From the NCBI GenBank assembly GCA_041674345.1, contig JBAYVY010000001.1, positions 1 through 41,537 of the forward strand: a DNA stretch of 41,537 nt. Reading direction: 5' to 3'. This stretch comes from Phycisphaeraceae bacterium (lineage in GTDB: Bacteria > Planctomycetota > Phycisphaerae > Phycisphaerales > Zrk34). Of this stretch, positions 21,979 to 41,537 are shown one piece after another (position 1 is the stretch's first letter; every line of letters starts with the position of its first letter). The translations under genes and the position numbers were made by a program. Below the pieces are notes generated by a model, which made no database searches, was not told the origin of the DNA, and saw only the letters and a program-made list of their open reading frames with translations.

Positions 21979-22011
21979 CGTTGCGACCTTTCGTAATCGA
22001 AGTATGCGGAT

Positions 22012-22163
22012 TAATGACGAATGACGAAATCCGAATGACGAATCAATGACGAATGCCCAATGACGAATGTCGAAACGGAAGAAACTCGGCGAGGCGCGGT
22101 TCTATTTTGAACATTGTCATTTGGAGTTTCATTCGTCATTCGGATTTCGTCATTCGTCATTTC
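22012..22163. repeat. hairpin element, AATGACG family, copy 3 (inside the pnt operon)
   Basis: Left arm holds five AATGACGAA(T/A) units. Right arm TTTCATTCGTCATTCGGATTTCGTCATTCGTCATTTC ends 2 nt from the pntAA stop. Confidence 0.9.
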
Positions 22164-22164
22164 T

Positions 22165-23313
22165 TCACGCTCCCATCGCCTGTTTCACGCGCTCATGCAC
22201 GACCTGCCCGTCCCTGGTGACCAGCACACCCCTGGTGATCTCGTCTTCGAGATTCCACTGGATTTCCTGGGTCTTGCCGATCAGGTGTTGAATGAGCTTC
22301 ACGACGTTGCCGGCGTACATGGTGCTGGCGTCGTAGGCCACGTCGCTGGCGATGTGCAGATGGCCGACGAGGGTGACGCCGTGCTTGACGACGGTTTTGC
22401 CGGGTTCGGTCAGTTCGCAGTTGCCGCCGCGCTCCGCCGCCATATCAACGATGACGCTGCGGGGCGCCATGCGTTTGACCATGTCTTCGGTGATGAGTTT
22501 GGGCGCGGGCCGACCGGGAATCAACGCCGTGGTGATGACCACATCGGAATCCGCGACGACATCGGCGACCAGCGCTTTCTGTTTGGCCTGTTGTTCGGGG
22601 GTGAGTTCCTTGGCGTAGCCGCCTTCGCCCTCAGCCATCGCTTCGGGGACCATGACGAACTTGCCGCCGAGCGATTCGACCTGTTCCTTGGTGGCCGGAC
22701 GAACGTCGGTGGCGCTGACCGCCGCGCCCAGTCGCTTGGCCGTGGCGATCGCCTGCAAACCGGCGACACCGGCGCCGATGATGAACACCTTGGCGGGTTT
22801 CAATGTCCCGGCGGCGGTCATCATCATCGGAAAAATCTTCGGCAGATGGTCCTGCCCGATCAACACCGCCCGATACCCCGCCAGGTTCGCCTGACTGGAC
22901 AGCGCGTCCATCGCCTGGGCGCGGGTGGTGCGGGGAATCAGCTCCATCGCCAGCAGCGACACGCCCCTGGCCGCCATCGCCTTGGTTTGTTCATGCGCCA
23001 GCAGCGGCTCGGCGTGGCCGATCACGACCTGACCGGCTTTCATATGCTGAAGGTCGTCGAAGCCGCGGTCGGGGTTCGCGCCATAGGCGCGCACCTGCAC
23101 CAGCACGTCGGCTTGTTGAATCAGTTGGGCGCGATCCGCCACGACCGTCGCGCCTTTGGCCTGGTATTCGCTGTCGGGGAATCCCGCCTCGTCACCGGCG
23201 CCGGCTTGGACCTGAATCTTCAGGCCGGCTTTAATCAGCGGCGTCAAGGACGCCGGGGTGAGAGCGACGCGACGTTCGCCGTCGCACGTTTCTCGGCAAA
23301 TGCCCACAATCAT
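22165..23313 (-). CDS. pntAA: NAD(P) transhydrogenase subunit alpha part 1
   Basis: Trimmed to the ATG at 23313 (MIVGICRETCDGERRVALTP). Alanine-dehydrogenase/PNT fold with GAGVAGLQAI Rossmann motif. Confidence 0.9.
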   Translation of the reverse strand: MIVGICRETCDGERRVALTPASLTPLIKAGLKIQVQAGAGDEAGFPDSEYQAKGATVVADRAQLIQQADVLVQVRAYGANPDRGFDDLQHMKAGQVVIGHAEPLLAHEQTKAMAARGVSLLAMELIPRTTRAQAMDALSSQANLAGYRAVLIGQDHLPKIFPMMMTAAGTLKPAKVFIIGAGVAGLQAIATAKRLGAAVSATDVRPATKEQVESLGGKFVMVPEAMAEGEGGYAKELTPEQQAKQKALVADVVADSDVVITTALIPGRPAPKLITEDMVKRMAPRSVIVDMAAERGGNCELTEPGKTVVKHGVTLVGHLHIASDVAYDASTMYAGNVVKLIQHLIGKTQEIQWNLEDEITRGVLVTRDGQVVHERVKQAMGA

Positions 23314-23486
23314 GGGTACACCTCGTACAAGGTCGCGGTTTTCACAATGTCTTCCATCGCTTCCAATCCAGACCTGATGGACAGCGAAGTCGCAGATAAT
23401 ACAGATGAATGTATCCGAAATCAAGGGCGAGCGGAGAATGGGGTTTTGTCCTGATCGCACCCACCGAATCGCCGGAAAGCGGATGT

Positions 23487-23546
23487 CGAAACCCGAAACT
23501 CAAAACAGCCCGGCAATCTTCCTTTCAAGTTTCGGGTTCGGGTTTG
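23487..23546. repeat. oligomer-built hairpin element (CGAAACC type)
   Basis: CGAAACCCGAAACT ... AGTTTCGGGTTCGGGTTTG. Confidence 0.6.
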
Positions 23547-23601: not shown

Positions 23602-26085
23602 TCATTTCCCCTCATCGCCCGTCGCCTTTCGCTTCTCGTCGTCTTCCAGCACGGCGCGGGTCGCCGCCGCGAAGGCGTTGATCGTCATGTCTCCGCTGCG
23701 AAGGCCGGCGTTCAATATCGGATCATCGACCTTATGCACCTGCGTGGCCAGCATCGTCAACTGCACCAGCGGGTGAGGGGTCTGCGCCGCGGCGGACAGC
23801 ACGTCGGCCAGTGGTTTGACCACCGTGTCATTCGGCGGGATCAGCGACACGAGGTATGCCTGTTGCACCGGCGAATAACCGGGGAACGCGGCAACCAACG
23901 CCCGCGTGATGTCGTCATCGGGGCGGGGGAAATTCATTTCCCCCGCCGGCTCGGACAGCACGGCGACGAGCATGGCCATCGCACGCATCGCCGCGGCCGG
24001 ATCGGAACTGCCCAGTTCGATGATTTTCTGTTGGACGGCCTGCTGGGTGATCGGCACATTGCGGCGGACCAGATCGCGCAGGAACGCGGTGGAGCCGAGC
24101 ATCCCCGGCGCGAACGCCCCGCCGGAGGCGACGGTCGGATTGAGGATCGCCAGTTCGCCGATCTGCACCCTGGCCCACGGCGAATCGGTCAGCAGCATGC
24201 CCAGGTCCGCGCTGTCCAATCGCACGGGGATCGACAGCGACCGCAACGGCTCGATCCGCAACCGGCGGGACACATCCATCACCATCGGCGACAACGGAGA
24301 CGCCGGCCGCAAATTCACCGACACCGACGGCGAAAGGAACAGCCGCGTCGGTATCGAACCGTCCGGCCCCATCGACAACGGATAAGTGTTGACATTGCGA
24401 AGTTCCAGCACGGCGGTGATTGGCTGACCGAAGTCGTACCGCATCATCGGACAGACCCATCGCACCTGCACGAAGCTCATCGGATCGGCGGCCATCTGTC
24501 GCAGCGCGGGGGGCACGGCGGCGAACACGGCGGCCACCTGCCGCGCCTCGGCCGGAGCGGGCAGGGGCAGGGACATGCGGCGAAGCTGCGCCGCGGCGGT
24601 CATGCCGAATATGTCCGTCGGCGATTGAAGCACGACCTGACGCAGATGTTGGATCGCCCGATCCTTCGCATCGGACTGCGCCAGTTCGGCCATCGCCAGA
24701 CCGAGCGCCGCGCGCGGATCGGCGTCCGCCAGGGGCGTGAGCAGTTGCGTGGCGATGTCGAGTTGGCCGGTGCGCATCGCCAGCCAGCCGCGCATCAGCG
24801 GCAGTTGAAGGTTCGCCGCATCGGGCTGCGTCGCCAGTTTGTCGAGCAGCGCGGCGGTCTGATCGGTGTTCTGATCGCAGAGGAGCTGCGCCCAGACCTG
24901 TGCGACGGCGGGGGCAATGAATTGCCCCCGCCCCAGTTCGGCGTTCAATCGGTCGTCCAGCCGCTTGAACGCGACGGACAGATCGGCGGAGGTTCCGTTG
25001 TTGGCCAGGATCGCCGCCCGCAGCATCAACGAGTCAAGCGGAGGCCAGTCCGGGTTCGCGGGAGGGGGTGCCTTGTCGGACTTCGCTTCCGGGGGCGGGG
25101 GCGATGAATCGCCCCCGCCTTTGGGGGCGGGGACCGGGGGCGGGTCGAGTTGTGCCAGCAGCGATATCGCATCGCTTCCGCGACCGGCCCCCCACAACGC
25201 CAGCGCCCATTCGTGCAGCAGCGAGATCGAGCCGGTGCGACGGTTGGCGGTGTCGATCCGCGCCGCGCCGGCGAACCAATCGGCGGCATCGTTGTATTGC
25301 GCCATCGACATGAGCATCTGCCCGATGGCCGCATGAGCGCGACCGTCGGCCGGGTCGGCCTGGAAGAGCGTCAACATCGCCGCGGCCCGCTCCTGGGCCG
25401 TGCTTTTTTCACTGGCGCTGAGTACCCGCAACGATTCGGCGGCCGCCTGTTTGTTCGTCGAATCCAACTGAAGCGCCATCGTCAGCAGGCGACCGTATTC
25501 GCCGGGCTGCCCCAGTTCGGCCGCGAGAATCGCCGCCCGCAGCGCCACGCGACTGCGCAGCGGAGCGCTGAAATGTTCGGCCGCCGGTCCTTCGGTGATT
25601 TTCAACAGGTACGCCAGTCGCAGATCGGCGGTCTGCATTTTTGCCGTGAGCAGGTCGATCAGCCGCAGTTGTGCCGCGTCGTCGGCCGGCGCCAGCCGCA
25701 TGTATTGTTTGAGCGCGTCGATCTGCGCGTCGCGGTCGTCGCAAAGCGACTGCGCCTCGGCGGTCAGCAGCCATCGCTCGGCGTCCGTGCCGTCCAAAGC
25801 GTTGGCCTGTTCGAGCAACAGGCGCGCCTGCGTGATGCGGGCCGGTTGGGGCTGGGCCTGGTCCGCAGACACCAGCGCCCGCCGCGCCAGCATCGTCAGC
25901 CGGTGCGCCAACATCCGCGACGCGGTGGGATACGACGCGGCGTCCGGCGGGGTTCCTGGAGCATCCGGGGTTCCGGGGGCATCCGGAGGGACGGCCTGTG
26001 CCGGCGCGATGCCCGTCGCCATCGCGATCAGCAGCAGCATTATGAACGCGGTCGATCGATTGGTTTTCACTGACAGACCCTTCAC
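23602..26085 (-). CDS. large secreted TPR-like/helical-repeat protein, function unknown
   Basis: 827 aa. GTG start at 26085 (alternative ATG at 26040) gives signal peptide ...LLLIAMATGIAPAQA. Alanine/leucine-rich helical repeats. Contains two palindrome copies in frame. Confidence 0.6.
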   Translation of the reverse strand: MKGLSVKTNRSTAFIMLLLIAMATGIAPAQAVPPDAPGTPDAPGTPPDAASYPTASRMLAHRLTMLARRALVSADQAQPQPARITQARLLLEQANALDGTDAERWLLTAEAQSLCDDRDAQIDALKQYMRLAPADDAAQLRLIDLLTAKMQTADLRLAYLLKITEGPAAEHFSAPLRSRVALRAAILAAELGQPGEYGRLLTMALQLDSTNKQAAAESLRVLSASEKSTAQERAAAMLTLFQADPADGRAHAAIGQMLMSMAQYNDAADWFAGAARIDTANRRTGSISLLHEWALALWGAGRGSDAISLLAQLDPPPVPAPKGGGDSSPPPPEAKSDKAPPPANPDWPPLDSLMLRAAILANNGTSADLSVAFKRLDDRLNAELGRGQFIAPAVAQVWAQLLCDQNTDQTAALLDKLATQPDAANLQLPLMRGWLAMRTGQLDIATQLLTPLADADPRAALGLAMAELAQSDAKDRAIQHLRQVVLQSPTDIFGMTAAAQLRRMSLPLPAPAEARQVAAVFAAVPPALRQMAADPMSFVQVRWVCPMMRYDFGQPITAVLELRNVNTYPLSMGPDGSIPTRLFLSPSVSVNLRPASPLSPMVMDVSRRLRIEPLRSLSIPVRLDSADLGMLLTDSPWARVQIGELAILNPTVASGGAFAPGMLGSTAFLRDLVRRNVPITQQAVQQKIIELGSSDPAAAMRAMAMLVAVLSEPAGEMNFPRPDDDITRALVAAFPGYSPVQQAYLVSLIPPNDTVVKPLADVLSAAAQTPHPLVQLTMLATQVHKVDDPILNAGLRSGDMTINAFAAATRAVLEDDEKRKATGDEGK
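24907..24932. repeat. 26-nt palindrome, copy C (GGCGGGGGCAATGAATTGCCCCCGCC)
   Basis: One central substitution relative to copy B. In frame in the TPR-like gene as GRGQFIAPA. Confidence 0.9.
25094..25119. repeat. 26-nt palindrome, copy D (GGCGGGGGCGATGAATCGCCCCCGCC)
   Basis: Same GC clamps, with centre CGATGAATCG. In frame in the TPR-like gene as KGGGDSSPPP. Confidence 0.8.
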
Positions 26086-29423: not shown

Positions 29424-29460
29424 CAATAAAAGACGCCGAACCTTGGAGGGCTTCGGCGTC
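29424..29460 (-). terminator. intrinsic terminator downstream of the cytochrome operon
   Basis: The minus strand reads GACGCCGAA-gccctccaagg-TTCGGCGTC followed by TTTTATT, 48 nt after the stop of the last operon gene. Confidence 0.65.
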
Positions 29461-29507
29461 AATTGCCCCGCTATCGAACGGGGCAGGTCTGGCGTGAAAT
29501 GAAAATG

Positions 29508-30506
29508 TTACGGCTGCGCGGGGGCGGGAACCGCCAGCGTCCGGCCCGACACGCTGGTCTCGAACGCCAGGCGAAACGACTCGGCCGCGTGTTCCCAATC
29601 CTTGTCGTGCTGATACACCAGCCCCAGCGCGTAATGCACCTCAGCCGGTTCGGGGTTCAGCGCCAGCGCTTCGCTCAATAACTGTTTCGCGTCGCCCCAC
29701 TGACTCAACGCGACCATCGCCCGGCCCTTCAATGCATTGACGCGCCAACCCGCCACTGTTTTTTCGTCCACGTTTCGCAGTGTTTTCATCGCTTCCGCCG
29801 GCCGGCCGACGGCGATGTCCAGCCGCGCCATCGCCAACAGCAGCAATGCGGATCGGGGTTCTTTCTCCAGCCCCTTGGTGATCTCGGTACGGGCTTCGCC
29901 GTAATCGCCTTTCTCCATCAATCGCTGCGCCAGTTGGAGGTGGCGATTGGCGATGTCGCCGTCGGTGCTGCCGACGACGCCGCGGTCGGCCAGTCGTTGT
30001 CTGAGCGTCGCCTCGTCGATTTTGCCGGATGCGAAGTCGATGTAAGCCGCCATGTCTTTGCTGTACGACGCGGGACATCCGCCGATGTGCGCGATGAGTT
30101 TGCCGTCACCGGCGATCACCAGCGTGGTCGGCCAGACGCGCACAAGCATCCGACCCGACGCGTCGTATTTCGGATCGACGACCATCGGCAGCGTCCACCG
30201 GGTCTGTTCAACCAGCGTCGGTGCGAACGCCCCCGCCTGTTCGCCGCTGATGATCGCGGCGATCCGCGCATCGCTCCGACCGGCCAGTACCTGTTGCGCG
30301 TAACCCATCGCGTGTTTGCTGTGGTCCTGGTCGGCCATGACGAACAACAGCACCGTGACGCGACCGGCGAGGGGCACGGCGAACGGTTGGCCGGTGGTAT
30401 CCTGCGCGGCCCAGGTGATCGTTTTCGGCGCAAGTTCCTGCGCGATGAGCGAGCATGTCAGGCCGAGCGTCAGCAGCATGGATGCGAGAAATGTACGGCA
30501 AATCAT
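29508..30506 (-). CDS. periplasmic thioredoxin-fold (no CXXC) + TPR protein
   Basis: Signal peptide. TlpA/redoxin-like fold with VLLFVMADQDHSK where WCxxC is expected. C-terminal TPR repeats (GDYGEARTEITKGLEKEP..., ALGLVYQHDKDWEHAAESF). The start overlaps the upstream stop (ATGA). Confidence 0.7.
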   Translation of the reverse strand: MICRTFLASMLLTLGLTCSLIAQELAPKTITWAAQDTTGQPFAVPLAGRVTVLLFVMADQDHSKHAMGYAQQVLAGRSDARIAAIISGEQAGAFAPTLVEQTRWTLPMVVDPKYDASGRMLVRVWPTTLVIAGDGKLIAHIGGCPASYSKDMAAYIDFASGKIDEATLRQRLADRGVVGSTDGDIANRHLQLAQRLMEKGDYGEARTEITKGLEKEPRSALLLLAMARLDIAVGRPAEAMKTLRNVDEKTVAGWRVNALKGRAMVALSQWGDAKQLLSEALALNPEPAEVHYALGLVYQHDKDWEHAAESFRLAFETSVSGRTLAVPAPAQP

Positions 30507-32002
30507 GGCTTGGGTACCTCCGTGGAAGAAGGAGCGGGCGCTGGGGCGGCAGCCGCATCTGGTTTCGTTTCGCGGGCCGGGGCTGATTCCGGGGGCGGGG
30601 GGGCGTTGTAATCAACGGGGTGATCGCGGTCGTAATTCAGCGGCTTGTGGCAGCCGGGCGAGCAGCTTCCGCCGGTCTTGACGGGCGTGTAGCTGATCGG
30701 CAGCGTCCAATTGCCGTAAGGCACCGATTCGCGGATGTGCATCGACTGCGTGCTGGCGTGGGTACTGTGACAAGCGCGGCAGGTTCGGCCCCGTGATTCC
30801 TTCTCAACATGCACATAATGAAGGTTCCGCGAGCCGTTGCGGAAACCGGTGAGTGAACGGGTGTCTTTTTGCGTCGCCAGGTCTTTGCTGTGACAGGTGA
30901 AGCACAGGCCGTAGTCATCGACCTTGAACGATGCGTAGAACTGTTCGGGGTAGGGCTTGGCCAGCAGGCGTGACACGTCCGAGCCGTGGACGTTGTGACA
31001 TCCGCCGCAACCGCCTTCTTTCAACGGGCCGTGCAGGTACATGCCCGGCTGGGTGATCTCCGCCGCCGAATGCACGACTTTGCCGCCGGACTGCGTGATG
31101 TCCTTGTCGTGGCACTTCATGCAAATGGTGATCGGCTGATCTTTCAGCAGTTTCGACAGGTTGCCGCCGTGCGCCGTGTGACAGTTGACGCAGGCCCGCC
31201 CCTCGGTCACGGCCGAGTGCTTGTATTTCGCATCGAACGCGGCTTTGCCGATGTCCTTGTGGCAACGGGTGCAAAGCTGAAGCGGTGCCGCCTTCAACAC
31301 CGGCGCGTTGTCGCCGGCGTGCGGATCGTGGCATTGGATGCAGTCGCCGTCCGTCACCGGCTTGTGCGCGAATTGAACATGCTTGAGCTGGTCGCCCATT
31401 TCCGTGTGGCAGGTGAGACACAACTGGTTCGCGGGTTTGACCAGCAGGTGATCGTTGGCCGACAGATGCGGCTGGTGGCACGCGCCGCATGCGCCGGCGG
31501 CCACCGGACCGTGTATCGACTTGTGATCTTTGGTCATGTCCTGGTGGCACGTCTTGCAAAGATCGCCCATCGACTTGGCGCGAAGCAGATTCCGGTCGAA
31601 CCCGCCGTGCGGGTCGTGGCAACTCTGACACTGCCCGGCGGCCAGCGGCTTATGCACGACCTTCGCCCCGGAGGTATCCATCTGATGACAGAACGCGCAA
31701 AGTTTGTCGGGGCTGCGCAACAGCGTGAACTTGTGCGTCTTGGCGTCGGTGAGCGTGTGGCAGGCGTCGCAGGCGTTGACGTTCACCGGGCCGTGTACCT
31801 GCGGATGTTTTTTCACACCCGCGTGGCAATCGGCGGTGACGCAGTCCTTCATGGCCACCACGGTGGTCGGTTTTGTCACGGCGGATGCGATGGGAACTGC
31901 GGGAACCGCGGGTCGGGCGGCGGGCGCGGCATCGCCGGCGAACGCCGGCGATCCGATCGCCGCGAGCATCGCAATGGACAGCAACATCACATATCGTTTC
32001 AT
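30503..32002 (-). CDS. periplasmic multiheme cytochrome c (13 CXXCH + CX4CH + CX3CH)
   Basis: Signal peptide MKRYVMLLSIAMLAAIGSPAFA. Paired CXXCH ... H-x-P ... CXXCH-x-PH spacing, as in Geobacter-type doubled-CXXCH cytochromes. Paralog of the upstream gene. Confidence 0.9.
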   Translation of the reverse strand: MKRYVMLLSIAMLAAIGSPAFAGDAAPAARPAVPAVPIASAVTKPTTVVAMKDCVTADCHAGVKKHPQVHGPVNVNACDACHTLTDAKTHKFTLLRSPDKLCAFCHQMDTSGAKVVHKPLAAGQCQSCHDPHGGFDRNLLRAKSMGDLCKTCHQDMTKDHKSIHGPVAAGACGACHQPHLSANDHLLVKPANQLCLTCHTEMGDQLKHVQFAHKPVTDGDCIQCHDPHAGDNAPVLKAAPLQLCTRCHKDIGKAAFDAKYKHSAVTEGRACVNCHTAHGGNLSKLLKDQPITICMKCHDKDITQSGGKVVHSAAEITQPGMYLHGPLKEGGCGGCHNVHGSDVSRLLAKPYPEQFYASFKVDDYGLCFTCHSKDLATQKDTRSLTGFRNGSRNLHYVHVEKESRGRTCRACHSTHASTQSMHIRESVPYGNWTLPISYTPVKTGGSCSPGCHKPLNYDRDHPVDYNAPPPPESAPARETKPDAAAAPAPAPSSTEVPKP

Positions 32003-33510
32003 GGTGTACCCGCTTTCGGCACAGGGTTCAAATCGCGCTTGTACGTTTTGGGTTCATGGCAGCCGGGCGAGCAACTGCCGCCGCCGGATGCTTTTTGGAA
32101 CTTGATCGGCATGGCCCACTGGCCGCCCTCGAACGGCACGCTGGTGGCGATGTGGTTCGGCAGATCGCTGCCATGAATGTCGTGACAGGTCTTGCAGGTT
32201 CGGCCTTTCTCCGCCCGATGCACATGCACGTAATGAAGGTTCGCGTCCCCGTTGCGGAAGCCCGTGAGATTGACGGTTTTTTCTTCAAGCACCAAATCTT
32301 TGTTGTGACAGGTGAAGCAGAGCGCGTAATTTTGAAGATCGAATTTCGCGTAAAAAGTTTTGGGGAAGGTTTGGACGAGCAATCGTTCGTGGCCGGCGCC
32401 GTGGACGTTGTGGCAGGCGGTGCAGTCGCCGGACCGCACCGGGCCGTGAAGGAACTTTTGATTCAGCGTGGGGCGCATGTCGGGAATGGTGTGGCCGTCG
32501 TGCGCCGGCAGCGGTTTGTCGTGGCAGGTCATGCAGAGTTTGTCGGCCCGCTGCTTCAGCAGGTGCGGCTGAGGCGAGGCGTGGGCGTCGTGACAGTTGG
32601 CGCAACCATCGGCGATCACCAGCGCATCGTGCGAAACAGTCGCGTTTTCAACGGTCTTCGCCATGTCCTCGTGACACGACAGACAGGTGGCGTCGATGGG
32701 CTTGCGAAGTTCATATGGATTGTCGGAAGTGTGCGGATCGTGACAAGTGGTGCATTGATCTTTGGCCGGGGCGTGGACGAAGGGTGAATCGGCGATGGCC
32801 CGTTGTTTGTCGGCATGGCAGCCGAAGCAGACCTTGGGTTCATCGCCGCCGCGCAACAGTTTGTTGAAATTGGATTCGTGGGGCTGATGGCAGAGCGTGC
32901 ATTGCCCGGCTTTGAACGGCTGGTGGGCGTGTTTCCGCCAGGGGATGTCGTGGCACTTGGCGCAGAGTTGTTCGGTGTTGTCAGCGGTGAGCAGGAACTT
33001 GGCGCGCGAGGCGTGGGGATTGTGACAGGTGGTGCAGCCGTTGTCGGCGACGGCTTTGTGCTGGTGCGCGGCGGTGTCGGTGACGGTGTGACAATACGTG
33101 CAGGTGGCATCTTTTTCGCGTTTGAGCGGATAAGTGTGTCCGCCCTGGTCTTCTTTGTGACAGGCGAAGCAATTTTTCAGCGCGACCGGGCCGTGGATGC
33201 GCGAGGCGGTTGCGAAGGAAGCGTGACAGGCGGGAGTGACGCAGGAAGCGTCGGCGGGCAGGGGGCCGGTGGGCTTGGGGTCGGGCGCGACGGGGACGGG
33301 CGCGATCGGGCCGGACCCGCCCCCGGAAGTGAAGCGGGTCACGCCGGGAGAAGTGAGCGGAAAACTTTCGGTGGACGCGGCGGGCGCGGCGCCCCTGGTC
33401 GGCTCGACGGGCTTGGGTTTGCGACCGCAAGCGATCAGCGCGACGCACAGGCACAACAGCAGCGACGGCGCGATGAAACGGAGCGCGGGATGTGCGGGGC
33501 GCGGGGTCAT
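31999..33510 (-). CDS. multiheme cytochrome c lipoprotein (13 CXXCH + CX4CH + CX3CH)
   Basis: Track ORF 31999..34107 trimmed to the ATG at 33510. That start overlaps the upstream stop (ATGA) and gives lipoprotein signal LLLCLCVALIAC. The longer N-terminus is an R-rich shadow. Confidence 0.88.
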   Translation of the reverse strand: MTPRPAHPALRFIAPSLLLCLCVALIACGRKPKPVEPTRGAAPAASTESFPLTSPGVTRFTSGGGSGPIAPVPVAPDPKPTGPLPADASCVTPACHASFATASRIHGPVALKNCFACHKEDQGGHTYPLKREKDATCTYCHTVTDTAAHQHKAVADNGCTTCHNPHASRAKFLLTADNTEQLCAKCHDIPWRKHAHQPFKAGQCTLCHQPHESNFNKLLRGGDEPKVCFGCHADKQRAIADSPFVHAPAKDQCTTCHDPHTSDNPYELRKPIDATCLSCHEDMAKTVENATVSHDALVIADGCANCHDAHASPQPHLLKQRADKLCMTCHDKPLPAHDGHTIPDMRPTLNQKFLHGPVRSGDCTACHNVHGAGHERLLVQTFPKTFYAKFDLQNYALCFTCHNKDLVLEEKTVNLTGFRNGDANLHYVHVHRAEKGRTCKTCHDIHGSDLPNHIATSVPFEGGQWAMPIKFQKASGGGSCSPGCHEPKTYKRDLNPVPKAGTP

Positions 33511-35018
33511 GGGGTGGTTTGCGTGACGATCTTTTCGCAGTTGTCGATGGCGACGTGCAGCAGGGCGGTGGCGTAGGTCATGTTGTGAACGCCGCGACCG
33601 ATGCGGACCAGTTCGATGTTGTGCCGGGCGTCGTCGAACAGTTGTCGCAGTTGCAGTTGTTTGGGCGCGGGCAGGGCGTCGATGTGCTTGAGCGACTCGG
33701 CGGCCCGTTTCGCGGCGGCCTGCGCGTCGGCGAGGTCTTTGTCGATGGCGACTTTCCACTCGGCGAGTTTGTCGTTGTATTGTTCGCCGTGGCACTTGGT
33801 ACACGCGGCCTGCGCGGCGCGGAAGGTCTGGCCGGACACCAGCGCGATGTCGCCGGCGTGTTCGGGGAAATCGTGACAGGCGATGCAATCGACCTGCGTG
33901 CGGAACATGACGCTGGGCGAATCGCTCACGCCGCGCCCGCCGGTGCCGCGATACAGATCGAGCGAACCGCTGTGCAGTTGTTCGTGGCATTGGGCGCAGG
34001 AGCCGGCCTGCATGACGACCTGGTTGGCGTTGCCGATGACGCGCTCGGCTCCGGCGGGCGCGCCGGCGGTCAAGCTGTGCGTGATCTGAATGTGGCAACT
34101 GGAACATTCGACCTTGTGTTCGTTGACGTGGGCTTGGTGCATGAAGCTAGTTTCGCTGTACCGGGCGATCTGGACCGGCTGATTGTGACAGGTCCAGCAG
34201 CCCTGCCTGGGGACCGCGCCGTCACCGCTGATCGCGTCGGAGTGGCAGTTCTGGCACGTCACGCCGCGGTTGATGAAATCGGCGTGGTTGAACAACCCGG
34301 TGCTCAGACGAATCTTCTCTTTGGGCGCATCGTGGCACGCGCGGCAGCCGCCGAGCGTCTGATCGTCGCGTCCGTGCTTGAAGCCCTTGAAGTGGCAGAG
34401 GAAGCAGGTGTCGAGCGTGACGACGATGTGCTGGCCCTGCACGATTTGCGAGTGGCATGAGACGCAGCGGAGTTGTTTGCCGCGGCGGTCCTGTGTGAGG
34501 TGGGGCGTGTGATCGAAGCGGATGGTGATGGTGTCGCCTCGTGAACTTTTGACATCCCAGTTGACCTTGCCTTCGAGCAGGCGGCGTTCGTGGCAGCCGT
34601 CACGCATGCAGGCGGCGTCATGGACCTCGGCGTGGGGCTTGGAGCCGTAGGTGTGGGTGATGTATTTGACGGCCTGACTGGAGGCCTGGAACTTTCCGTA
34701 GAGGGTGTTGCCGACGCCGGGGTCGAAGTGACATTTGACGCAGGGCACGTCTTTGTGGTTGGAGGTGTGCCAGGCCTGGTAGTAGGGTTCCATGATGTGG
34801 CAGGAACGGCAGAAGTCGGGCTGCATGGAATACTCGGCGAAGCCGATGGAGCCGATGACGCCGAACACCGCGCCGAACAGCACCATGCCCCACAACGTCA
34901 GGCCCAGAGGGATGCGTTTGCCGTGCCTGCGGCGGATGCCGAGTACGCGCTGCCACTTGGGGCGTTGTGACGCCGCGGGGGGCGGGGATGCGGTCGGTTG
35001 ATTTTCCTGCGGCTCCAT
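33507..35018 (-). CDS. membrane-anchored NapC/NirT/NrfH-type multiheme cytochrome c (11 CXXCH + CX4CH)
   Basis: N-terminal TM helix LTLWGMVLFGAVFGVIGSIGF, followed by CRSCHIMEPYYQAWHTSNHKDVPCVKCH, the NapC/NirT signature. Further hemes and a C-terminal helical region. Confidence 0.85.
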   Translation of the reverse strand: MEPQENQPTASPPPAASQRPKWQRVLGIRRRHGKRIPLGLTLWGMVLFGAVFGVIGSIGFAEYSMQPDFCRSCHIMEPYYQAWHTSNHKDVPCVKCHFDPGVGNTLYGKFQASSQAVKYITHTYGSKPHAEVHDAACMRDGCHERRLLEGKVNWDVKSSRGDTITIRFDHTPHLTQDRRGKQLRCVSCHSQIVQGQHIVVTLDTCFLCHFKGFKHGRDDQTLGGCRACHDAPKEKIRLSTGLFNHADFINRGVTCQNCHSDAISGDGAVPRQGCWTCHNQPVQIARYSETSFMHQAHVNEHKVECSSCHIQITHSLTAGAPAGAERVIGNANQVVMQAGSCAQCHEQLHSGSLDLYRGTGGRGVSDSPSVMFRTQVDCIACHDFPEHAGDIALVSGQTFRAAQAACTKCHGEQYNDKLAEWKVAIDKDLADAQAAAKRAAESLKHIDALPAPKQLQLRQLFDDARHNIELVRIGRGVHNMTYATALLHVAIDNCEKIVTQTTP

Positions 35019-35027
35019 GATCGGCTC

Positions 35028-37202
35028 CTAAATCGCCTCCAGTCCGGCGAGGATGATGAGGACGGCCATCGCGGTTCCGACGAGCATGGCGAGGATGCCC
35101 AGCGCGACGGCGACGTAACGGTACCATCGCGGCGGGAGGGGAACGCGGTATTTTTCGATTTCGCCGGATGCGACCAATCGTTCGTATTCTTCGGGGCGTT
35201 CGTGTTTGAACTCTTCTTCCGAAAGCTGGCCGGTGAACATGACGTCATCGACGGGGAACTTTTCGGGTCGGACGTGCGCGTTGAAGAAATGGATGGTGAA
35301 GATGAAGACGACGGCGAGCAGGGCCTCGTAGCCGTGAATCAACGTGGCGATGTTGAAGGTCCAGCCGGGCAGGATGTGGGCGGTGGTGGTGGGGAACCAG
35401 AGCATCAGGCCGGTGATGCCGATGACGAAGGTGCCGAAGATTTCAGCCCAGTAGTCGAACTTTTCCCAGTAGGTCCAGTGATCGAAGCGGGGCGGGTTTT
35501 TGCCGGTGAAGAACCAGCGGAACATGGCCAGACAGTCTTTGGCGTCCTTGGGTTTGGGGACCAGGGAGTTGGGGCCGGTGAGGAACCTGAACAGCGAGAC
35601 GTGGCGTTGCCTGGCGCGGTGGACGACGCCGGCGATGTGTACGGCGAAGTTGCCGATGAGTATGACGGCGCAGATGCGGTGGATGATGCCGGCGGAGTGG
35701 ACCCCGCCGAGCATGTCGGCCAGCACGATGGCCCACTGGTGATCGCTGAACAGCAGGGGCATGCCGGTGAGGGTCAGTCCGAAGAAGCTGACGATCATCA
35801 GGCCGTGGTTGACGCGATCGACGCGGTTGAAGCGTTTGATGCCGTGGGTTTTGTGCGAGTGTTTGGGTTTGCCGTTTTTCAGGCGTTCGATGTGGGCGCG
35901 GATGAACCAGAGGATGGTGTGGACGCCGAAGAAGCTGAACGTGGAGCTTATCACGATGATGAAATAGAGCCAGACGTAATGGAGGAGCGGGAAGTTTTTG
36001 GCGCTGTGGAAATCGGCGTGGGGGCGGAACTCGGTGAACATGGCGGTCGCGCCTTCGTGACATTTGGCGCAGGTGTCGATGCGATGGTCGGGGGCGAGGC
36101 GCGAGTCGGGATCGTTCGGCGGGAGGATGTCGTGCGAGCCGTGGCAATCGCTGCAACGGGCGGCGCGCATGAAGCCGAGCTTGTTGACCTGGCCGTGGTA
36201 GCTGCCGCGATAGGTTTTGTAGAGCGAAGCGCCGTCGGGGTCGTTTTTCAGGGGTTTGTCGTGGCACTTGCCGCATTCGTTCACGATGTCGAGCATGAAC
36301 AGCGGCGTGTCGGCGGAACTGATGCGATGCGCGGTGTGACAGTCGATGCAGACCGGGGCGTTGGGATCGCCCTGGGCCAGTCGCTGACCGTGAACGGACT
36401 TTTCGTAGATTTCGTTGACGCCGACGTGACACCGGCCGCAGGTGTCGGGGACATGGGCGCGGTTGACCGAGGAGTTTTCATTTTTCGCCGGTTCGATGTC
36501 ATGCGGGCGATGGCAGTCGGCACAGGTGGCGGCGACGACCAGCCCGTTTCGCACCGCCTTGCCGTGGACGCTTTCCAGATAATTGGACACGGTTTGCCGC
36601 GGGTTCAGACCGGCGGGCGTCGGCGCGGTGAACTTCGAGTGGCATTCGGCGCAGGTCTTGATGATGTTCAGCGGATAAACCTTCGACCGGCGATCGGCGG
36701 GAGGCAGGATGTCGTGCCCGCCGTGGCACGAGGCGCAGGTCGGCGCCAGCGGGTTGTGATCGGCGACGGCTTGCGCGTGGGTGCTTCGGCGATACGCGGC
36801 GGCCTCGGCGGTGTGACACCCGCTGGTCGTGCAATCGACCCGGCTCATCTTCTGCGGATGCGGAAGATTTTCCGCGGCGGTGTGGCAACTGACACACGCC
36901 AGCGCCGCGTGCGGCCCCTGCCGAAGCGCGCCGGGCGCGATATACAAATCCGGCCTCGCCCCCGGAAGTTCACCCGCCATGTCCGTCTTACTTCCGGGGG
37001 CGGGGGCTGGGGTGGGGGCGGCTTGAATCATCGACCGACGCTCGGCGGGGGTCAGGTCGGCGATGTGCGACTGGCCGTGACAGGCGAAGCATCGCCGGTT
37101 GGACAGTTCGGCCTTGTCGAGTTCGATCGCATGAGTGATCGGCGTGAGGCACGCAAACGCCAGCACACCGGCAAACCACATCAACCGTAGGGAGTCGGGC
37201 AT
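35028..37202 (-). CDS. fusion of periplasmic multiheme cytochrome c (10 CXXCH + CX4CH) with an integral-membrane b-type cytochrome domain (CbcL-like)
   Basis: Signal peptide and heme motifs in residues ~1-390. Then 5-6 TM helices with conserved His (RVNHGLMIV, IIHRICAVILIGNFAVHIAG, TLIHGYEALLAVVFIFTIHFFNAH), as in HydC/FdnI-type dihaem cytochrome b. Confidence 0.85.
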   Translation of the reverse strand: MPDSLRLMWFAGVLAFACLTPITHAIELDKAELSNRRCFACHGQSHIADLTPAERRSMIQAAPTPAPAPGSKTDMAGELPGARPDLYIAPGALRQGPHAALACVSCHTAAENLPHPQKMSRVDCTTSGCHTAEAAAYRRSTHAQAVADHNPLAPTCASCHGGHDILPPADRRSKVYPLNIIKTCAECHSKFTAPTPAGLNPRQTVSNYLESVHGKAVRNGLVVAATCADCHRPHDIEPAKNENSSVNRAHVPDTCGRCHVGVNEIYEKSVHGQRLAQGDPNAPVCIDCHTAHRISSADTPLFMLDIVNECGKCHDKPLKNDPDGASLYKTYRGSYHGQVNKLGFMRAARCSDCHGSHDILPPNDPDSRLAPDHRIDTCAKCHEGATAMFTEFRPHADFHSAKNFPLLHYVWLYFIIVISSTFSFFGVHTILWFIRAHIERLKNGKPKHSHKTHGIKRFNRVDRVNHGLMIVSFFGLTLTGMPLLFSDHQWAIVLADMLGGVHSAGIIHRICAVILIGNFAVHIAGVVHRARQRHVSLFRFLTGPNSLVPKPKDAKDCLAMFRWFFTGKNPPRFDHWTYWEKFDYWAEIFGTFVIGITGLMLWFPTTTAHILPGWTFNIATLIHGYEALLAVVFIFTIHFFNAHVRPEKFPVDDVMFTGQLSEEEFKHERPEEYERLVASGEIEKYRVPLPPRWYRYVAVALGILAMLVGTAMAVLIILAGLEAI
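36957..37002. repeat. 13-bp inverted repeat inside the CbcL-like CDS
   Basis: CGCCCCCGGAAGT (36957-36969) and ACTTCCGGGGGCG (36990-37002) with a 20-nt spacer. Encodes a low-complexity segment PAPGSKTDMAGELPGA. Confidence 0.85.
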
Positions 37203-37464
37203 GGGGGCGTATCACCGCGTCAAAAAAATCGCTGCGGCGCCTTGGTACGGGGGTGGGGGTGGGGCGCGGGCCGGCGGCGTGGAAGGTTCCCTGATCGGCC
37301 CTGTTCCCACGTCGGCTTGCCATGCGATAAGCATATCCCGTGCCTGACAATGGGCTGTCAGTAAAGGAGTTAGAATGAGATGTCAATGGGTTTTTCTTGC
37401 GAATGGGAAAATGTGCTTATGGGGCTTCCCGTAAGCAAGAGGGAGGGGGGAAGGGAGGGAAGGG

Positions 37465-37595
37465 GAAACTCGAAATCCGAAACTCGAAGCTCGAATCAAA
37501 CTCGAAGTCCGAAACTCGAAACAAGAGGCGGCCTTCTTTTTCGATTTTCGAGTTTCGGACTTGATTCGAGCTTCGATCTTCGAGCTTCGAGTTTC
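37465..37595. repeat. oligomer-built hairpin element (CTCGAAA/CTCGAAG type), about 50-bp stem
   Basis: GAAACTCGAAATCCGAAACTCGAAGCTCGAATCAAACTCGAAGTCCGAAACTCGAAA ... TTTCGAGTTTCGGACTTGATTCGAGCTTCGATCTTCGAGCTTCGAGTTTC. Lies between the kinase stop and the cytochrome operon. Confidence 0.85.
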
Positions 37596-37625
37596 GTCAT
37601 TCGCCGCATACAGATCGTAGGCGAC

Positions 37626-38984
37626 TCACGGCACCGAAGGTTTCGCCGAGATCGTCAGATGATTCACCGCCGTCGCCGCCGTCGGCTTGGGCAGAACAAT
37701 CGTCATCGTCGTGCCCCGACCGGGCGCGCTGTCCACCTCAATCCGCCCGCCCTGCTTGTTCACCAGCGAATAGCTGATCGCCAGTCCCAGCCCCGTGCCC
37801 TTGCCCACCGGTTTGGTGGTGAAAAACGGCTCGAAAATGTGGTCTTTGTGTTCCGGCGGGATGCCCGTGCCGTTGTCCGTGATGCTGATGTGGCACTCGT
37901 TGCCCACGCATCGCGTTCGCACGATCAGCTTGGGGTTGGTCGCGCTGCCCACCGCGTCGATCGCATTGAGCAACAGGTTAATCAACACCTGCTGCATCGC
38001 GTGCGGCTGAATGTGCAACAGACACGGCGTCGGACTGAAGTCCCGCTCGATCAGCACCGCGCGGTGTCGCCGGTCGAATCGCACCATCGCCAGTCCCGTT
38101 TCCACCAGATCAATGATCGGCATCATCTCCCAGTGCATGTCGGTCGGATGCGAGAAGTTGGTGAGCTGGCTGAGTATCTGCCGGATGCGGGCGGCCTGTT
38201 GACGCAGCGTCGTCAGTTTCTCGCCGGTCATGCGGTCGGGGTGGCGCTCGGCCAGTTGCAACATGCTGTCGATGTTGGCCAGGGGATTGGCGATTTCATG
38301 CGCCACGCCCGCCGCCATCTGTCCCATCGCCACCATCTTCTCATGTTGAATCATCGTCTGTTGCTGCAATCGCAGGGTCTTGGCCATCGCGCGGACGCGG
38401 TGGTTCTGCGACAACAGCCGCGTGCGATGCCGGCGCAAGCTGCGCATGATGCTGTTGGCCAGATAGACCGTCAGCGCCAGCGTCAGTATCCACCCGGCCA
38501 TCACCAGACGCGGATACATCTCGACGCCTTCGGTCGGCGGTATTTGTCCGCTGAACCATAGGCAGGCCGTGACCATGATGACGGAGACCGCCGCCCCGGC
38601 GTAGGCCGTGTGACGGGGCAATAGCAGACTGGCGAACACCATATGAAAGACGAAAAACCCCATCAGCGGACTGGTCACGCCGCCGGTCCACATCGTCAGC
38701 AGCGACAACGCGCCCAGGTCCAGAACGATCTGCCCCCACGACAGCACTGTTCCCCGTCGCCGACCGAACACCGCGTGGCCCAGCAGCGAGCGAAACATCA
38801 GGTTGTAAATCAGAATCGCCAGTCCGACGAACAATATGTCCTGGTTCTTCGGGTACCAGTGCATGATCCAGCGATCGGCCAGCGCCCCGGCGATCACCGT
38901 CAACCCCGCCAGCCAGCGCAGACGAACAAACCAGCGCAATCGCACCAGCAACATCCGATCCTGGACCTGATCCGACCGAATCAT
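37626..38984 (-). CDS. polytopic sensor histidine kinase (RegB/PrrB-like architecture)
   Basis: Track ORF trimmed to the ATG at 38984, which overlaps the upstream stop (ATGA). About 6 TM helices with short loops, H-box [10 protein letters not shown]-box LLNAIDA, G-boxes DNGTGIP and GTGLGLAIS. Confidence 0.85.
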
Positions 38985-40081
38985 GTCTGCCGATTCTCCG
39001 GGATTCTCGCCAAAGTTTCCACCCCCGTCCCCGGAAGGGTTTCCTCCTGTGTTTCGGGCAGGGGTTCCAAACTCGACTGTTCCAAATCCAGCATCTTCAC
39101 TCCGCCCACATAATCGGTCAGCACGATCCGTCTCACATTCTTCAATGTCTGCACCACCCGGGTCATTCGGCCAAGCGTTTGGTGAATCTGCGTCAGACAC
39201 GTTTCCATCGCCTGCTTGTCGCCGACCTGCCTGCGAAGCAAACGCAACTGCAAGTCGATCACCGCCGCCGCGTTGTTCAGTTCGTGGTTCAGCGTCAGCG
39301 CCACCTGCTGTAACGTCTCGATCTTGCGCTGTTCGTTCTGTTCCAGTTGTGACGCCAGGTGATTGTAGGCCTGCGCCAGTTCGTCGAACTCATCGCGCTG
39401 GCTCAGGTCCACGCGGTAGTGGAAATGTTCCATCGCCAGTTCTCGCGTGGCCTCCAGCAGTTTGTCCATCGGCCGGAGGATGATGTTCGCCGACCGCAGC
39501 AGCACCAGTATCGAAATGTTGATGACCAGCAGGAAACCCGCCGCGATCGCCACGACGAGCACGCGGAATCGTCCGGTCAGTTCCGCCATTTCGTCCTGTC
39601 CGTGCTGATGCGCGAATTGCGCGACCCGCAACATGTCGTCGCGCAGCTGCGCCGCGTCGGTCAGCGCCGCCAGGTTGTGCCGGGCCGCCAGTTCCGGGTC
39701 TTCCGTGGTCGCCAGCGTGCCGACCTGCCGCTCGAACTGGTTCAGCCGGTCGCACATGCGCGAATAGACCGGCGCCATCGGTTCGCGGTGAACCACGTAA
39801 TACCCGCCCAGTTCGCGGTTCAGTTGCCGCATCCGTTGCACCGAGTCGATCAGCGGATCGAGATGGTGCGTCTTGCGGTCTCGCAGTTCATGCAGCGAAA
39901 TCTCGACGCGCGAAATCATCGAACTCAACTGGTTCGCCAGATCGACGACCTTGTTCGTCTGCGTGTTGATGTGGTTCAGCCCGCCGAATATCGACTGGAG
40001 CGACACCAGCGCCGCCACCGCCAGTATCATCAGCAGCACGATCACGCTCGACAGAATGATGAGCAGTTTTCGACGAAGCAT
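38981..40081 (-). CDS. membrane sensor with periplasmic helical domain, HAMP and DHp (HisKA-like) domain but no ATPase domain
   Basis: Start set to the ATG at 40081 (MLRRKLLIILSSVIVLLMILAVA), 2 nt after the upstream stop. Second TM, HAMP (ILRPMDKLLEATRELA...DEFDELAQAYNHLASQLE), H-box-like LNHELNNAAAVI. No N/G boxes. Confidence 0.75.
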   Translation of the reverse strand: MLRRKLLIILSSVIVLLMILAVAALVSLQSIFGGLNHINTQTNKVVDLANQLSSMISRVEISLHELRDRKTHHLDPLIDSVQRMRQLNRELGGYYVVHREPMAPVYSRMCDRLNQFERQVGTLATTEDPELAARHNLAALTDAAQLRDDMLRVAQFAHQHGQDEMAELTGRFRVLVVAIAAGFLLVINISILVLLRSANIILRPMDKLLEATRELAMEHFHYRVDLSQRDEFDELAQAYNHLASQLEQNEQRKIETLQQVALTLNHELNNAAAVIDLQLRLLRRQVGDKQAMETCLTQIHQTLGRMTRVVQTLKNVRRIVLTDYVGGVKMLDLEQSSLEPLPETQEETLPGTGVETLARIPENRQT

Positions 40082-40083: not shown

Positions 40084-41046
40084 TCAGTTCCCCGGTGTCA
40101 GCGGTTTGGGTGGCGGCCCCGCCACCCCCAGTTGATCCCACGCCGATCCGATCTCGTCCACCATCCGGTACACCGCCTGGTAATCCTCGATCCGGCAGGG
40201 CGCGAAACCCTTCGATCCGAACGCCTTCAACGCCGCCCGGCCCCGCTCGTCCTGATCCATCTTCAGCAGCGTTTCCCGCAGCGCCCGCATCTGATCGGCC
40301 GGCATGTCGCCGCTGACGATCAGCCCGTTGTCCGGCACCTGGTCGCTGGTCGCCAATCGACGAATCCGCACCTCCGGGTGTTCCGTCAGGTACGCATCCA
40401 GCCGCAGGTTTTTCACCGCCCCGGCATCGACGGTTCCCGCGATCACTTCGTTAATCACATCGTCGTGTGTGCCGACCCATCTGAAAATCGGTCGCTTCAC
40501 ATCGGTCAGCATGTCGTTCCGGTGAAACAGGTAAATCGGAAACAGGTTGCCCGCCGTGGTCGTCCGCACCAGCGCGATCGATCGGCCGGCCAGTCCCGCG
40601 ATATCGCTGATCGGCGAATCATCGCGCACGATGATGACCCCGGCGTAGGTCGATACGCCGTCCGGATGCGCCGGCTTGGCCAACACCACCGTGCCCAGCC
40701 GCTCATATGCCAGCACCGCGAGCATCGACCCGACGAACGCGCCTTCGATGTGCTTCTGCGCGAACTCGTCCAGCACGCTCTGGTAGGTGTTCAAACTGAC
40801 CAGTTCGACGGGGCGATTCAGATGCTCCGCCAGGTCGTCCGCCAGCGACTGGTAACGCTGGCGTTGCGCGAAAATGTTGCGTTCGGGGATCAGCGCCAGT
40901 CGCAGCGGGGTGGCGTTCGTCGCCGGGCCGGTTTGGACCGGCGGCGGCCCTTGCCCGTCCGTACCCGACTTGTACGCGGCACAGATGAACATGCCGACCA
41001 CCACCAGCACCAGCATCGCCGACAGAATGATCGCCGTCATACGCAT
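40084..41046 (-). CDS. membrane-anchored PhnD-like (phosphonate/phosphate ABC-type) periplasmic binding-domain protein
   Basis: N-terminal TM anchor. LRLALIPERN..., TYAGVIIVRDDSPI, AGAVKNLRLD resemble PhnD-type substrate-binding proteins. No ABC permease or ATPase gene nearby. Confidence 0.75.
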   Translation of the reverse strand: MRMTAIILSAMLVLVVVGMFICAAYKSGTDGQGPPPVQTGPATNATPLRLALIPERNIFAQRQRYQSLADDLAEHLNRPVELVSLNTYQSVLDEFAQKHIEGAFVGSMLAVLAYERLGTVVLAKPAHPDGVSTYAGVIIVRDDSPISDIAGLAGRSIALVRTTTAGNLFPIYLFHRNDMLTDVKRPIFRWVGTHDDVINEVIAGTVDAGAVKNLRLDAYLTEHPEVRIRRLATSDQVPDNGLIVSGDMPADQMRALRETLLKMDQDERGRAALKAFGSKGFAPCRIEDYQAVYRMVDEIGSAWDQLGVAGPPPKPLTPGN

Positions 41047-41294: not shown

Positions 41295-41537
41295 ATGAAC
41301 CACCCGCACACGATCAACGCCACGAACCCCGCCCCCCCAACGCCGCCGCTGCGACTGCTGTTCTGGGAGACCACCGCCGCGTGCAATCTCGCCTGCGTCC
41401 ACTGCCGCCGGCTCGATGTCTCGGCCAAACTCTGCAAAGACGATCTGACCACCGAACAGGCGTTGACCATGATTCGCTCCCTGCCGCAAACAGGCCGGCC
41501 CATCCTTGTCTTCTCCGGCGGCGAACCGCTCATGCGA
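41295..41537 (+). CDS. radical SAM protein, 5' partial (AhbD/NirJ-like N-terminus)
   Basis: ATG at 41295, open to the window end. LLFWETTAACNLACVHCRR is a CxxxCxxC radical-SAM cluster motif, followed by ILVFSGGEPL. Confidence 0.75.
   Translation, partial: MNHPHTINATNPAPPTPPLRLLFWETTAACNLACVHCRRLDVSAKLCKDDLTTEQALTMIRSLPQTGRPILVFSGGEPLMR

Follow-up and report, generated by a model that had tools for sequence, protein, structure and literature searches.

What does a bacterium gain from a five-gene block that encodes dozens of haem-binding sites and has neither a recognizable terminal reductase nor a porin beside it? The question is raised by contig JBAYVY010000001.1 of a Phycisphaeraceae bacterium (assembly GCA_041674345.1), whose 41,537 nucleotides, the whole contig, are referred to here as the window. 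Its minus strand carries, between positions 37202 and 29508, five genes that we call A to E in order of transcription: two different membrane-bound cytochromes of quinol-dehydrogenase type (A and B), two long periplasmic cytochromes (C and D) and a protein without haem motifs (E). We consider it somewhat better than even, at a probability of roughly 55%, that A to E form an inducible respiratory chain, which would take electrons from quinol into the periplasm and maybe as far as the outer membrane.

Translation of the minus strand gave the same gene order, coordinates, overlaps and motif totals as the first-pass annotation, which had been made by reading the letters of the window alone. A (35028-37202) encodes 724 amino acids with ten CXXCH motifs and one CX4CH; B (33507-35018) encodes 503 amino acids with 11 CXXCH and one CX4CH; C (31999-33510; 503 amino acids) and D (30503-32002; 499 amino acids) each have 13 CXXCH, one CX4CH and one CX3CH; and E (29508-30506; 332 amino acids) has zero. 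This makes 47 canonical and six variant motifs, about 53 in all, and no CXXCK in any of the five translations. The B/C, C/D and D/E junctions are ATGA overlaps (33507-33510, 31999-32002 and 30503-30506), and A and B are separated by 9 nt with an AGGAG just before. On the 3' side of E lies the intrinsic terminator that had been predicted there (29425-29485, minus strand), composed of two GC-rich hairpins (29464-29485 and 29432-29460) and a U tract (29425-29431), with a fold z-score of -3.5 against shuffled sequences. The public gene call starts E nine codons downstream of the ATG used here; the signal peptide is better with the upstream start. Since tight packing of the five genes is also kept in relatives, we regard A to E as a genuine five-gene operon. 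Profile hidden Markov models (Pfam, NCBIfam) found the families expected of it, namely Ni_hydr_CYTB/FdnI-gamma in A, NapC/NirT/NrfH in B, Paired_CXXCH in C and D, and tetratricopeptide repeats (TPR) in E; equivalog-level NCBIfam matches among A to E numbered zero.

The block is not peculiar to this contig. The nearest locus, on a contig of a Phycisphaerales metagenome-assembled genome (MAG; locus L084), is about 90% identical to the window at the DNA level, which places the window in the Phycisphaerae, in keeping with the earlier impression of a non-proteobacterial genome. A and B each have about 2000 database relatives, with hundreds of full-length orthologues. The best 120 clusters for each are full-length and 53-95% identical, and their named members are Phycisphaerae (Tepidisphaeraceae, Phycisphaeraceae, Fontivita pretiosa and strain ZRK34). 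In a scan with one genome per species, A-like proteins occurred in at least 582 species from many phyla, and the rest of the block accompanied A only in Planctomycetota loci, where A is at least 44% identical. Phycisphaerae orthologues of A are 53-92% identical to it, and its homologues in Syntrophaceae, Thermodesulfobacteriota and many other phyla are full-length at 38-44% identity. The complete A-B-C-D-E order was found in Fontivita pretiosa (L001), in ZRK34 (L002) and in about ten MAG loci. The synteny of the block thus extends across Phycisphaerae loci, and because its genes are intact in all of them, pseudogenization is excluded. The motif inventory is equally constant: in 14 or more other loci C and D have 13+1+1 motifs, B has 11+1, and A has ten plus one variable site, this eleventh site differing among orthologues in spacing alone, from CX2CH to CX4CH. 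As the same inventory is kept in every orthologue examined, the variant haem motifs are not there by chance.

The presence of two quinol modules in one operon had been thought unusual. It is not without precedent: adjacent A and B genes are also found in loci of Elusimicrobia, Calditrichota, Thermodesulfobacteriota and Eisenbacteria, and in Rhodoferax a single cluster holds both cymA and mtrH (PMC6295460). Five related loci lack B and retain C, D and E; four of the five have a second CbcL-like paralogue. Since B-less relatives usually bear this second paralogue, the two-module layout looks selected. Fontivita and two MAGs have in addition an inserted block of D', E', Rieske, cytochrome b and multihaem genes. 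In Fontivita pretiosa (L001 4672-9918) the insertion separates A from the sensor kinase and begins with a second D'-E' pair; genes for a bc-type complex follow, namely Rieske, split cytochrome b and multihaem c. Upstream of A in L004 and L006, the equivalent position is occupied by a D' copy.

The product of A has a signal peptide, an 11-haem c-type domain and a C-terminal FdnI/HydC-like cytochrome b domain with five to six predicted transmembrane helices. The C-terminus scores 42.5 bits against PF01292 (Ni_hydr_CYTB, cytochrome b561; cutoff 30.1) and matches the FdnI-gamma model TIGR01583 with an E-value of 6e-11; a profile of the A family matches FdnI (1kqf_C) with an E-value of 0.0025. Histidines H428, H466, H508, H522, H623 and H638 are invariant in the orthologue alignment. 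By architecture and domain profiles, A is therefore predicted to be a c+b fusion of the CbcL/MtoC/MtrH type, and the label CbcL-like that it had been given stands. What it shares with these proteins is the secreted multihaem c domain, the cytochrome b of about six transmembrane helices that follows, and the conserved histidines. CbcL of Geobacter sulfurreducens has nine haems (PMC6295460) as against 11 sites in A and, unlike CbcL, A belongs to a five-gene operon of fixed composition that has a sensor to itself. Two homologues of the CbcL/MtoC/MtrH family had previously been reported in Planctomycetes (PMC6295460).

B is anchored by a single predicted transmembrane helix (residues 40-58), followed by CRSCHIM at 70-76, a motif of the NrfH type (CXXCHxM). 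M76 is invariant in 60 sequences and the alignment with NrfH also covers K109. The N-terminus exceeds the cutoff of the NapC/NirT family PF03264 (45 bits against 24.1), which together with the CXXCHxM motif and the match to the NrfH profile bears out the NapC/NirT-type label of the first-pass annotation; against the NrfH model TIGR03153, B scores 50 bits, below the cutoff of 134. Compared with the Protein Data Bank (PDB), the B family profile matches NrfH (2j7a_C, E-value 1e-9) and OcwA (6i5b, E-value 2e-15). OcwA is a nonahaem surface reductase of Thermincola potens (PDB 6I5B), and it is residues 244-492 of B that align with its residues 253-497, a stretch that takes in the final five haem motifs together with the helices of the C-terminus. 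No alignment in B was obtained for the N-terminal 250 residues of OcwA, which contain the NrfA-like active-site haem. Structure prediction added less: the AlphaFold2 model of B is poor (predicted local distance difference test, pLDDT, of 63.5) apart from three confident long helices at 417-501, and because of this the Foldseek matches that it gave to NrfH, TvNiR, NrfA and MccA are weak (E-value about 0.01, template-modelling score about 0.2), so that the OcwA/NrfH call rests on the profile match instead. We conclude that B is, as far as its sequence can tell, a 12-haem fusion in which an OcwA-like pentahaem region and helical C-terminus follow an NrfH-type anchor.

B resembles NrfH in its single transmembrane anchor, in a first haem of the CXXCHxM type and in a conserved lysine. 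NrfH and CymA are, however, tetra- or pentahaem cytochromes of about 150-400 amino acids, and the 12 motifs in 503 amino acids, taken with the sub-cutoff TIGR03153 score, make B an NrfH-like module rather than an equivalent of NrfH or CymA. The likeness to OcwA lies in the C-terminal pentahaem region and long helices; B differs from it in having 12 haems rather than nine, in lacking both the OcwA active-site half and CXXCK, and in being a membrane-anchored fusion. ImcH of Geobacter also differs in architecture, with three transmembrane helices and seven haems as against one helix and 12 haem motifs in B. The operon had been described as having no catalytic subunit. Given the OcwA-like C-terminal half of B, that statement is unproven, and on these alignments B may or may not be catalytic.

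C and D each contain six Paired_CXXCH units (Pfam, E-values of 1e-63 to 1e-65) and are 41% identical over 421 amino acids. Their family profile matches MtrA (6r2q_A) with an E-value of 1e-27 and also the high-molecular-weight cytochromes of Desulfovibrio (PDB 2e84 and 1h29), and the HmcA model of NCBIfam is matched too; against the DmsE-family model TIGR03508 they reach 131 and 149 bits, below the cutoff of 192. C has the lipobox LIAC, in keeping with its earlier description as a lipoprotein. The lipobox is kept in orthologues from ABCDE-type loci, and three B-less loci (L010, L012 and L015) have an uncleaved transmembrane anchor instead. D has a predicted Sec signal, cut between AFA and GD, and would be soluble in the periplasm; E has a Sec signal too. 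Predicted localization thus makes C a lipid-anchored and D a soluble member of a pair of putative 15-haem MtrA-like paralogues. The doubled-CXXCH units are common to C, D and the decahaem cytochromes MtrA and DmsE. C and D, however, have 15 sites instead of ten, are about half as long again with an extra C-terminal domain, possess the conserved CX4CH and CX3CH motifs, include one lipoprotein copy, and have no MtrB or MtrC gene adjacent.

E had been read as a thioredoxin-fold/TPR protein. The fold and the repeats hold (AlphaFold2, Foldseek, Pfam): the model (pLDDT 86.9) consists of a ResA/CcmG-fold N-domain and about 4.5 TPR repeats, the N-domain superimposes on ResA, DsbE and TlpA with template-modelling scores of 0.83-0.87 and root-mean-square deviations of 1.8-2.1 Å, and the architecture of the whole protein is near that of YbbN/CnoX. 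A redox-active thioredoxin it is not. The cis-Pro loop WPTT is invariant in the alignment, but CXXC was found in none of the orthologues, paralogues or fusions examined; its place is taken by QxxS or a degenerate sequence, QDHS in the window. With the catalytic cysteines nowhere in the family, E as a redox thioredoxin or peroxiredoxin is ruled out. The family is narrow, with 187 relatives of the N-domain among 1.84 billion representative proteins, and in at least eight of these 187, from other lineages, a D-type 15-haem cytochrome and an E-type tail form one natural polypeptide. Because such fusions occur, E is probably a physical partner of D, and a non-redox one. The same fusions make a purely transient maturation chaperone less likely. 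E thus shares the thioredoxin fold and cis-Pro loop with ResA, CcmG and TlpA but lacks their CXXC, and parallels YbbN/CnoX in its thioredoxin-fold plus TPR layout; it differs from both types in being secreted, in being fused to or encoded right after a 15-haem cytochrome, and in belonging to a tiny family.

The D/E pair adjoins differing quinone modules: the CbcL-like A with or without B, the Rieske/cytochrome b genes of Fontivita, and a fused NrfC-NrfD. From these arrangements the D/E unit appears to be the constant element, always beside a membrane module predicted to interact with quinone. Three loci illustrate the last arrangement (L085 6517-12301; L086 and L087, 7815-13465), with a D-E-type fusion gene directly after a gene of 726-758 codons for a 4Fe-4S (NrfC-like)+NrfD fusion; several URO-D family genes surround the fusion loci of L086 and L087. 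We tentatively raise the idea, more doubtful than probable, that D/E is a self-sufficient terminal redox module, unrecognized so far, which combines with three or more unrelated kinds of quinol oxidoreductase, its degenerate thioredoxin/TPR part serving for docking, for substrate presentation or, in System II organisms, as a new kind of client-specific factor of cytochrome assembly.

If A to E form a respiratory chain, under what conditions is it made? Directly upstream of A and on the same strand lie three sensor genes, conserved beside the cytochrome genes in relatives. The first (40084..41046, minus strand) encodes a membrane-anchored, PhnD-like binding protein, a putative ligand sensor, with a Pfam Phosphonate-bd match at an E-value of 4e-50, sub-cutoff matches to PhnD/TIGR01098 and an N-terminal hydrophobic anchor; a PhnD-like gene lies upstream of the cytochrome genes also in L001, L002, L003, L008, L009, L083 and in L084. 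The second (38981..40081, minus strand), whose likely ATG at 40081 is 2 nt past the stop of the binding-protein gene, encodes a HAMP protein (Pfam) with two transmembrane helices (28-46 and 194-212) and a periplasmic loop of about 150 amino acids. The third (37626..38984, minus strand) encodes a polytopic PilS-like histidine kinase (HisKA, HATPase_c and 6TM_PilS), its ATG at 38984 overlapping the HAMP stop (ATGA). In L083 the HAMP protein and the kinase are fused into one 859-amino-acid HAMP+HisKA+HATPase protein, and the HAMP protein is here taken, from its domains, as the likely sensor half of a split kinase. A similar logic is known from TorT/TorS, in which a separate binding protein and kinase govern a NapC/NirT operon. 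PhnD-like periplasmic sensor domains also control respiratory operons in TtrS and ThsS, whose ligands are tetrathionate and thiosulfate (PMC5408782). As against TtrS/ThsS and TorT-TorS, the sensor described here is split into three proteins and has a sigma-54-dependent output.

This output is suggested by a -24/-12 element, AGGCACGGGATATGCT, at 37330..37345 on the minus strand, about 130 nt upstream of A and between the kinase gene and A. Elements of the form TGGCACG-N4-xTGCw (GG-N10-GC type) precede A in 11 of 13 orthologous loci, compared with a background of 0.084 per kb. It is this comparison that is informative: across the window the sigma-54 pattern is not enriched (35 matches against 54 expected), and a scan for sigma-70 promoters gave nothing above chance. 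ZRK34 (L002) and L083 have a gene for a sigma-54 response regulator nearby. Divergent from the sensor operon, on the plus strand, is the 5' fragment (41295..41537; 81 codons) of an AhbD-like radical-SAM/SPASM gene of the haem b synthase family, which is cut by the contig end. The fragment is 92.6% identical to a protein of L084 (tblastn) whose best NCBIfam match is the heme b synthase TIGR04545, at 438 bits and below the 500-bit cutoff. In relatives the sensor is flanked by an ahbAB fusion, above NCBIfam cutoffs, and by ahbC-like and ahbD-like radical-SAM genes. None of this context, neither the sensor genes nor the sigma-54 element nor the AhbD-like fragment, was part of the first-pass annotation.

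The same region has some further features. The stretch that separates the kinase stop from the sigma-54 promoter contains an imperfect inverted repeat with 65-nt arms and TCGAA-type oligomers (37465-37595), which may be a repetitive extragenic palindrome-like element or may terminate the sensor operon; the related motif CGAAACTCGAA has seven matches in the contig against 1.3 expected, including 19742-19754 and 23492-23536. In L084 an extra gene of 460 codons, whose product has a C-terminus resembling MauG/dihaem peroxidases, is inserted between kinase and A (6017-7399); the corresponding part of the window (37375-37640) is without this gene and has the palindromic repeat there instead. L001 (482-871) and L002 (5689-6084) have a small YgbA_NO ('nitrous oxide-stimulated promoter') gene, flanked by the ahbD-like gene on one side and the sensor operon on the other; its position hints at a link to nitrogen-oxide stress.

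Where could the electrons go? The block has no neighbouring molybdopterin, CXXCK or copper reductase, be it in the window or in comparable loci with annotation inspected, and the claim that there is no terminal reductase holds in that sense. No open reading frame (ORF) of the window outside A to D has more than one CXXCH, and the rest of the contig encodes neither further multihaem cytochromes nor molybdoenzymes or copper proteins. Nor is there a porin gene or other outer-membrane component in the 41.5-kb window, so the reported lack of an outer-membrane β-barrel is correct for this contig. In six of about 17 related loci, however, the block adjoins a candidate outer-membrane module that we call X-NHL-F (L008 472-5424; L011 130-4280; L014 2-3778; L002 18066-22107; F alone at the edge of L006 and L009). 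X, a candidate β-barrel, has about 700 amino acids, a signal peptide and a conserved C-terminal RRxF; it gave zero matches in Pfam or the PDB, and a crude hydrophobic-moment test gave z = 0.6. Its partners are an NHL-repeat lipoprotein and F, a 12-haem paired-CXXCH cytochrome. Clusters DFE_0448-0451 and DFE_0461-0465 of Desulfovibrio ferrophilus likewise consist of multihaem cytochromes and NHL β-propeller proteins (PMC9769857); by gene content they are the same combination as the NHL lipoprotein and F, the differences being the X of about 700 amino acids alongside and that X-NHL-F is not on the window contig. X-NHL-F could be an outer-membrane exit, and because it adjoins the block in these loci, the description of the operon as a 'self-contained' conduit from quinone to periplasm is doubtful.

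From gene content, domain families, predicted topology signals, the conservation of genes and promoter and the D-E fusions, we infer quinol oxidation, an order and an outward direction of electron transfer, a ligand, an acceptor and a role for E as follows. The three-gene sensor would detect a periplasmic small molecule, probably oxyanion-like. Its kinase would act on a sigma-54-dependent response regulator, whose gene would lie a short way beyond the contig, and so turn on A to E from the -24/-12 promoter, with haem supply co-located in the form of ahb genes. The dihaem-b/11-haem-c protein A and the 12-haem protein B would link the menaquinone pool to the periplasm, passing electrons to the 15-haem MtrA-like wires, the soluble D with E and the lipid-anchored C. 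E would be a docking or stabilizing subunit of D, or its dedicated assembly factor. The cytochromes themselves would deliver the electrons to an acceptor accessible from the periplasm and, where X-NHL-F is present, electrons would perhaps reach extracellular acceptors through the outer-membrane unit.

Several observations weigh against this proposal. The terminal acceptor cannot be named from the gene content, and a sensor for a soluble ligand suits a soluble acceptor better than mineral reduction. The window holds no response regulator. Most related loci have no outer-membrane component within ±10 kb, and neither does the window contig; X as a β-barrel, drawn only from a signal peptide, the absence of a family match and the C-terminal RRxF, is unproven. 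The AlphaFold2 model of B, at the pLDDT given above, yields only feeble Foldseek matches. The CbcL/MtoC/MtrH family also has members in Fe(II) oxidizers, and the direction of flow cannot be read from sequence (PMC6295460). Finally, deletion of the analogous cytochrome clusters in D. ferrophilus left Fe(III) oxide reduction unimpaired (PMC9769857).

Some of these points lead to other explanations. The sensor might detect a sulfur, selenium, arsenic or nitrogen oxyanion such as thiosulfate, tetrathionate, sulfite or nitrite, with B most plausibly, or else C or D, as a periplasmic terminal reductase and no outer-membrane step. This agrees with the ligands of the PhnD-like domains of TtrS and ThsS (PMC5408782), with a putative selenate-binding protein as the third-best NCBIfam match of the binding protein, with the YgbA_NO gene beside the sensor in Fontivita and ZRK34, and with the lack of the outer-membrane module in most loci, the window included. 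For B as the enzyme one may cite the OcwA match of its C-terminal half (E-value 2e-15) and the weak Foldseek matches to TvNiR, NrfA and MccA, but A to E have zero CXXCK motifs, the catalytic-haem part of OcwA and NrfA is unmatched in B, and five related loci dispense with B and yet have C, D and E. As the substrate-specific family matches are moreover all sub-cutoff, we hold a dedicated oxyanion reductase to be rather unlikely.

A different possibility is that electrons flow inward. The donor, periplasmic or extracellular, might for example be Fe(II), reduced humics or, as for Hmc-type cytochromes, a dehydrogenase in the periplasm, and the cytochromes would feed the quinone pool by way of A and B. 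Sequence does not tell direction, the family of A includes MtoC of Fe(II) oxidizers (PMC6295460), the C/D profile matches high-molecular-weight cytochromes (2e84, 1h29, the HmcA model), and the D-E fusions adjoin NrfCD-like modules as HmcA adjoins HmcBC. But hydrogenase, formate dehydrogenase and Cyc2/MtoAB genes are all missing near the block in the loci with annotation inspected, described relatives are organotrophic facultative anaerobes (PMC13514998), and FeGenie markers of oxidative extracellular electron transfer occur in only 3 of 139 operational taxonomic units of Phycisphaerae (bioRxiv 10.1101/2022.03.26.485925), all of which makes an inward chain improbable. Still less credible is a redox capacitor, in which the roughly 53 haems of each set would buffer transient quinol discharge under redox fluctuation in a fermentative or facultative host, with no dedicated acceptor. 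The very dense haems without a reductase partner, and the two 15-haem paralogues, would fit such a store. A dedicated ligand sensor with a sigma-54 switch, though, argues for a specific inducing condition, an outer-membrane module linked in a third of the loci argues for a specific sink, and mere storage would give no reason for having two or three quinol modules of different kinds. An inducible outward chain from quinol is the explanation that we favour.

The rest of the contig contains housekeeping genes (nuoA, tyrS, pntB, NuoG-like, uvrC, lspA). The nuoA-like gene (5805-6266), a NuoG-like Fe-S/molybdopterin-fold gene (17999-19615) and pntB (20113-21654), all on the minus strand, are scattered and do not form a nuo operon. 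An 827-amino-acid ORF on the minus strand (23602-26085), with a GC content at third codon positions (GC3) of 0.82, has no Pfam match, nor do two plus-strand ORFs (20032-21996 and 22114-23454), which are probably spurious, given their overlap with minus-strand genes that score better.

Sediments, soils, hot springs and bioreactors all harbour abundant Phycisphaerae, which are usually described as fermenters that degrade polysaccharides or as simple nitrate or oxygen respirers. Every cytochrome domain of A to D appears, from its sequence, to come from a known family (CbcL/MtoC/MtrH, NapC/NirT, OcwA-like or MtrA-like). The literature searched offered no account of the fixed five-gene operon, of its split sensor and sigma-54 control, of the cysteine-less ResA-fold/TPR family and the fusions in it, or of a D/E unit that pairs with three quinol modules. 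In FeGenie surveys, Phycisphaerae had already been flagged for 'CbcL' and 'DFE' matches (bioRxiv 10.1101/2022.03.26.485925), and a 2024 genomic survey of the class leaves the cluster unmentioned (PMC11266412). As cultured carriers exist, namely Fontivita pretiosa and strain ZRK34, the question posed at the outset is directly testable. The D/E pairing and the fusions define what would be a new accessory-protein family for multihaem cytochromes and, if D/E is indeed a terminal module, it would give the Phycisphaerae a widespread respiratory route to extracytoplasmic acceptors without a classical porin. Two different quinol modules are used repeatedly in these loci, much as Geobacter, a member of an unrelated phylum, uses ImcH, CbcL and CbcBA according to potential. 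A conserved and specifically regulated operon of this haem content suggests a respiratory capacity hitherto unrecognized in these bacteria, which may serve for metal, humic or sulfur-oxyanion reduction, or for electron uptake.

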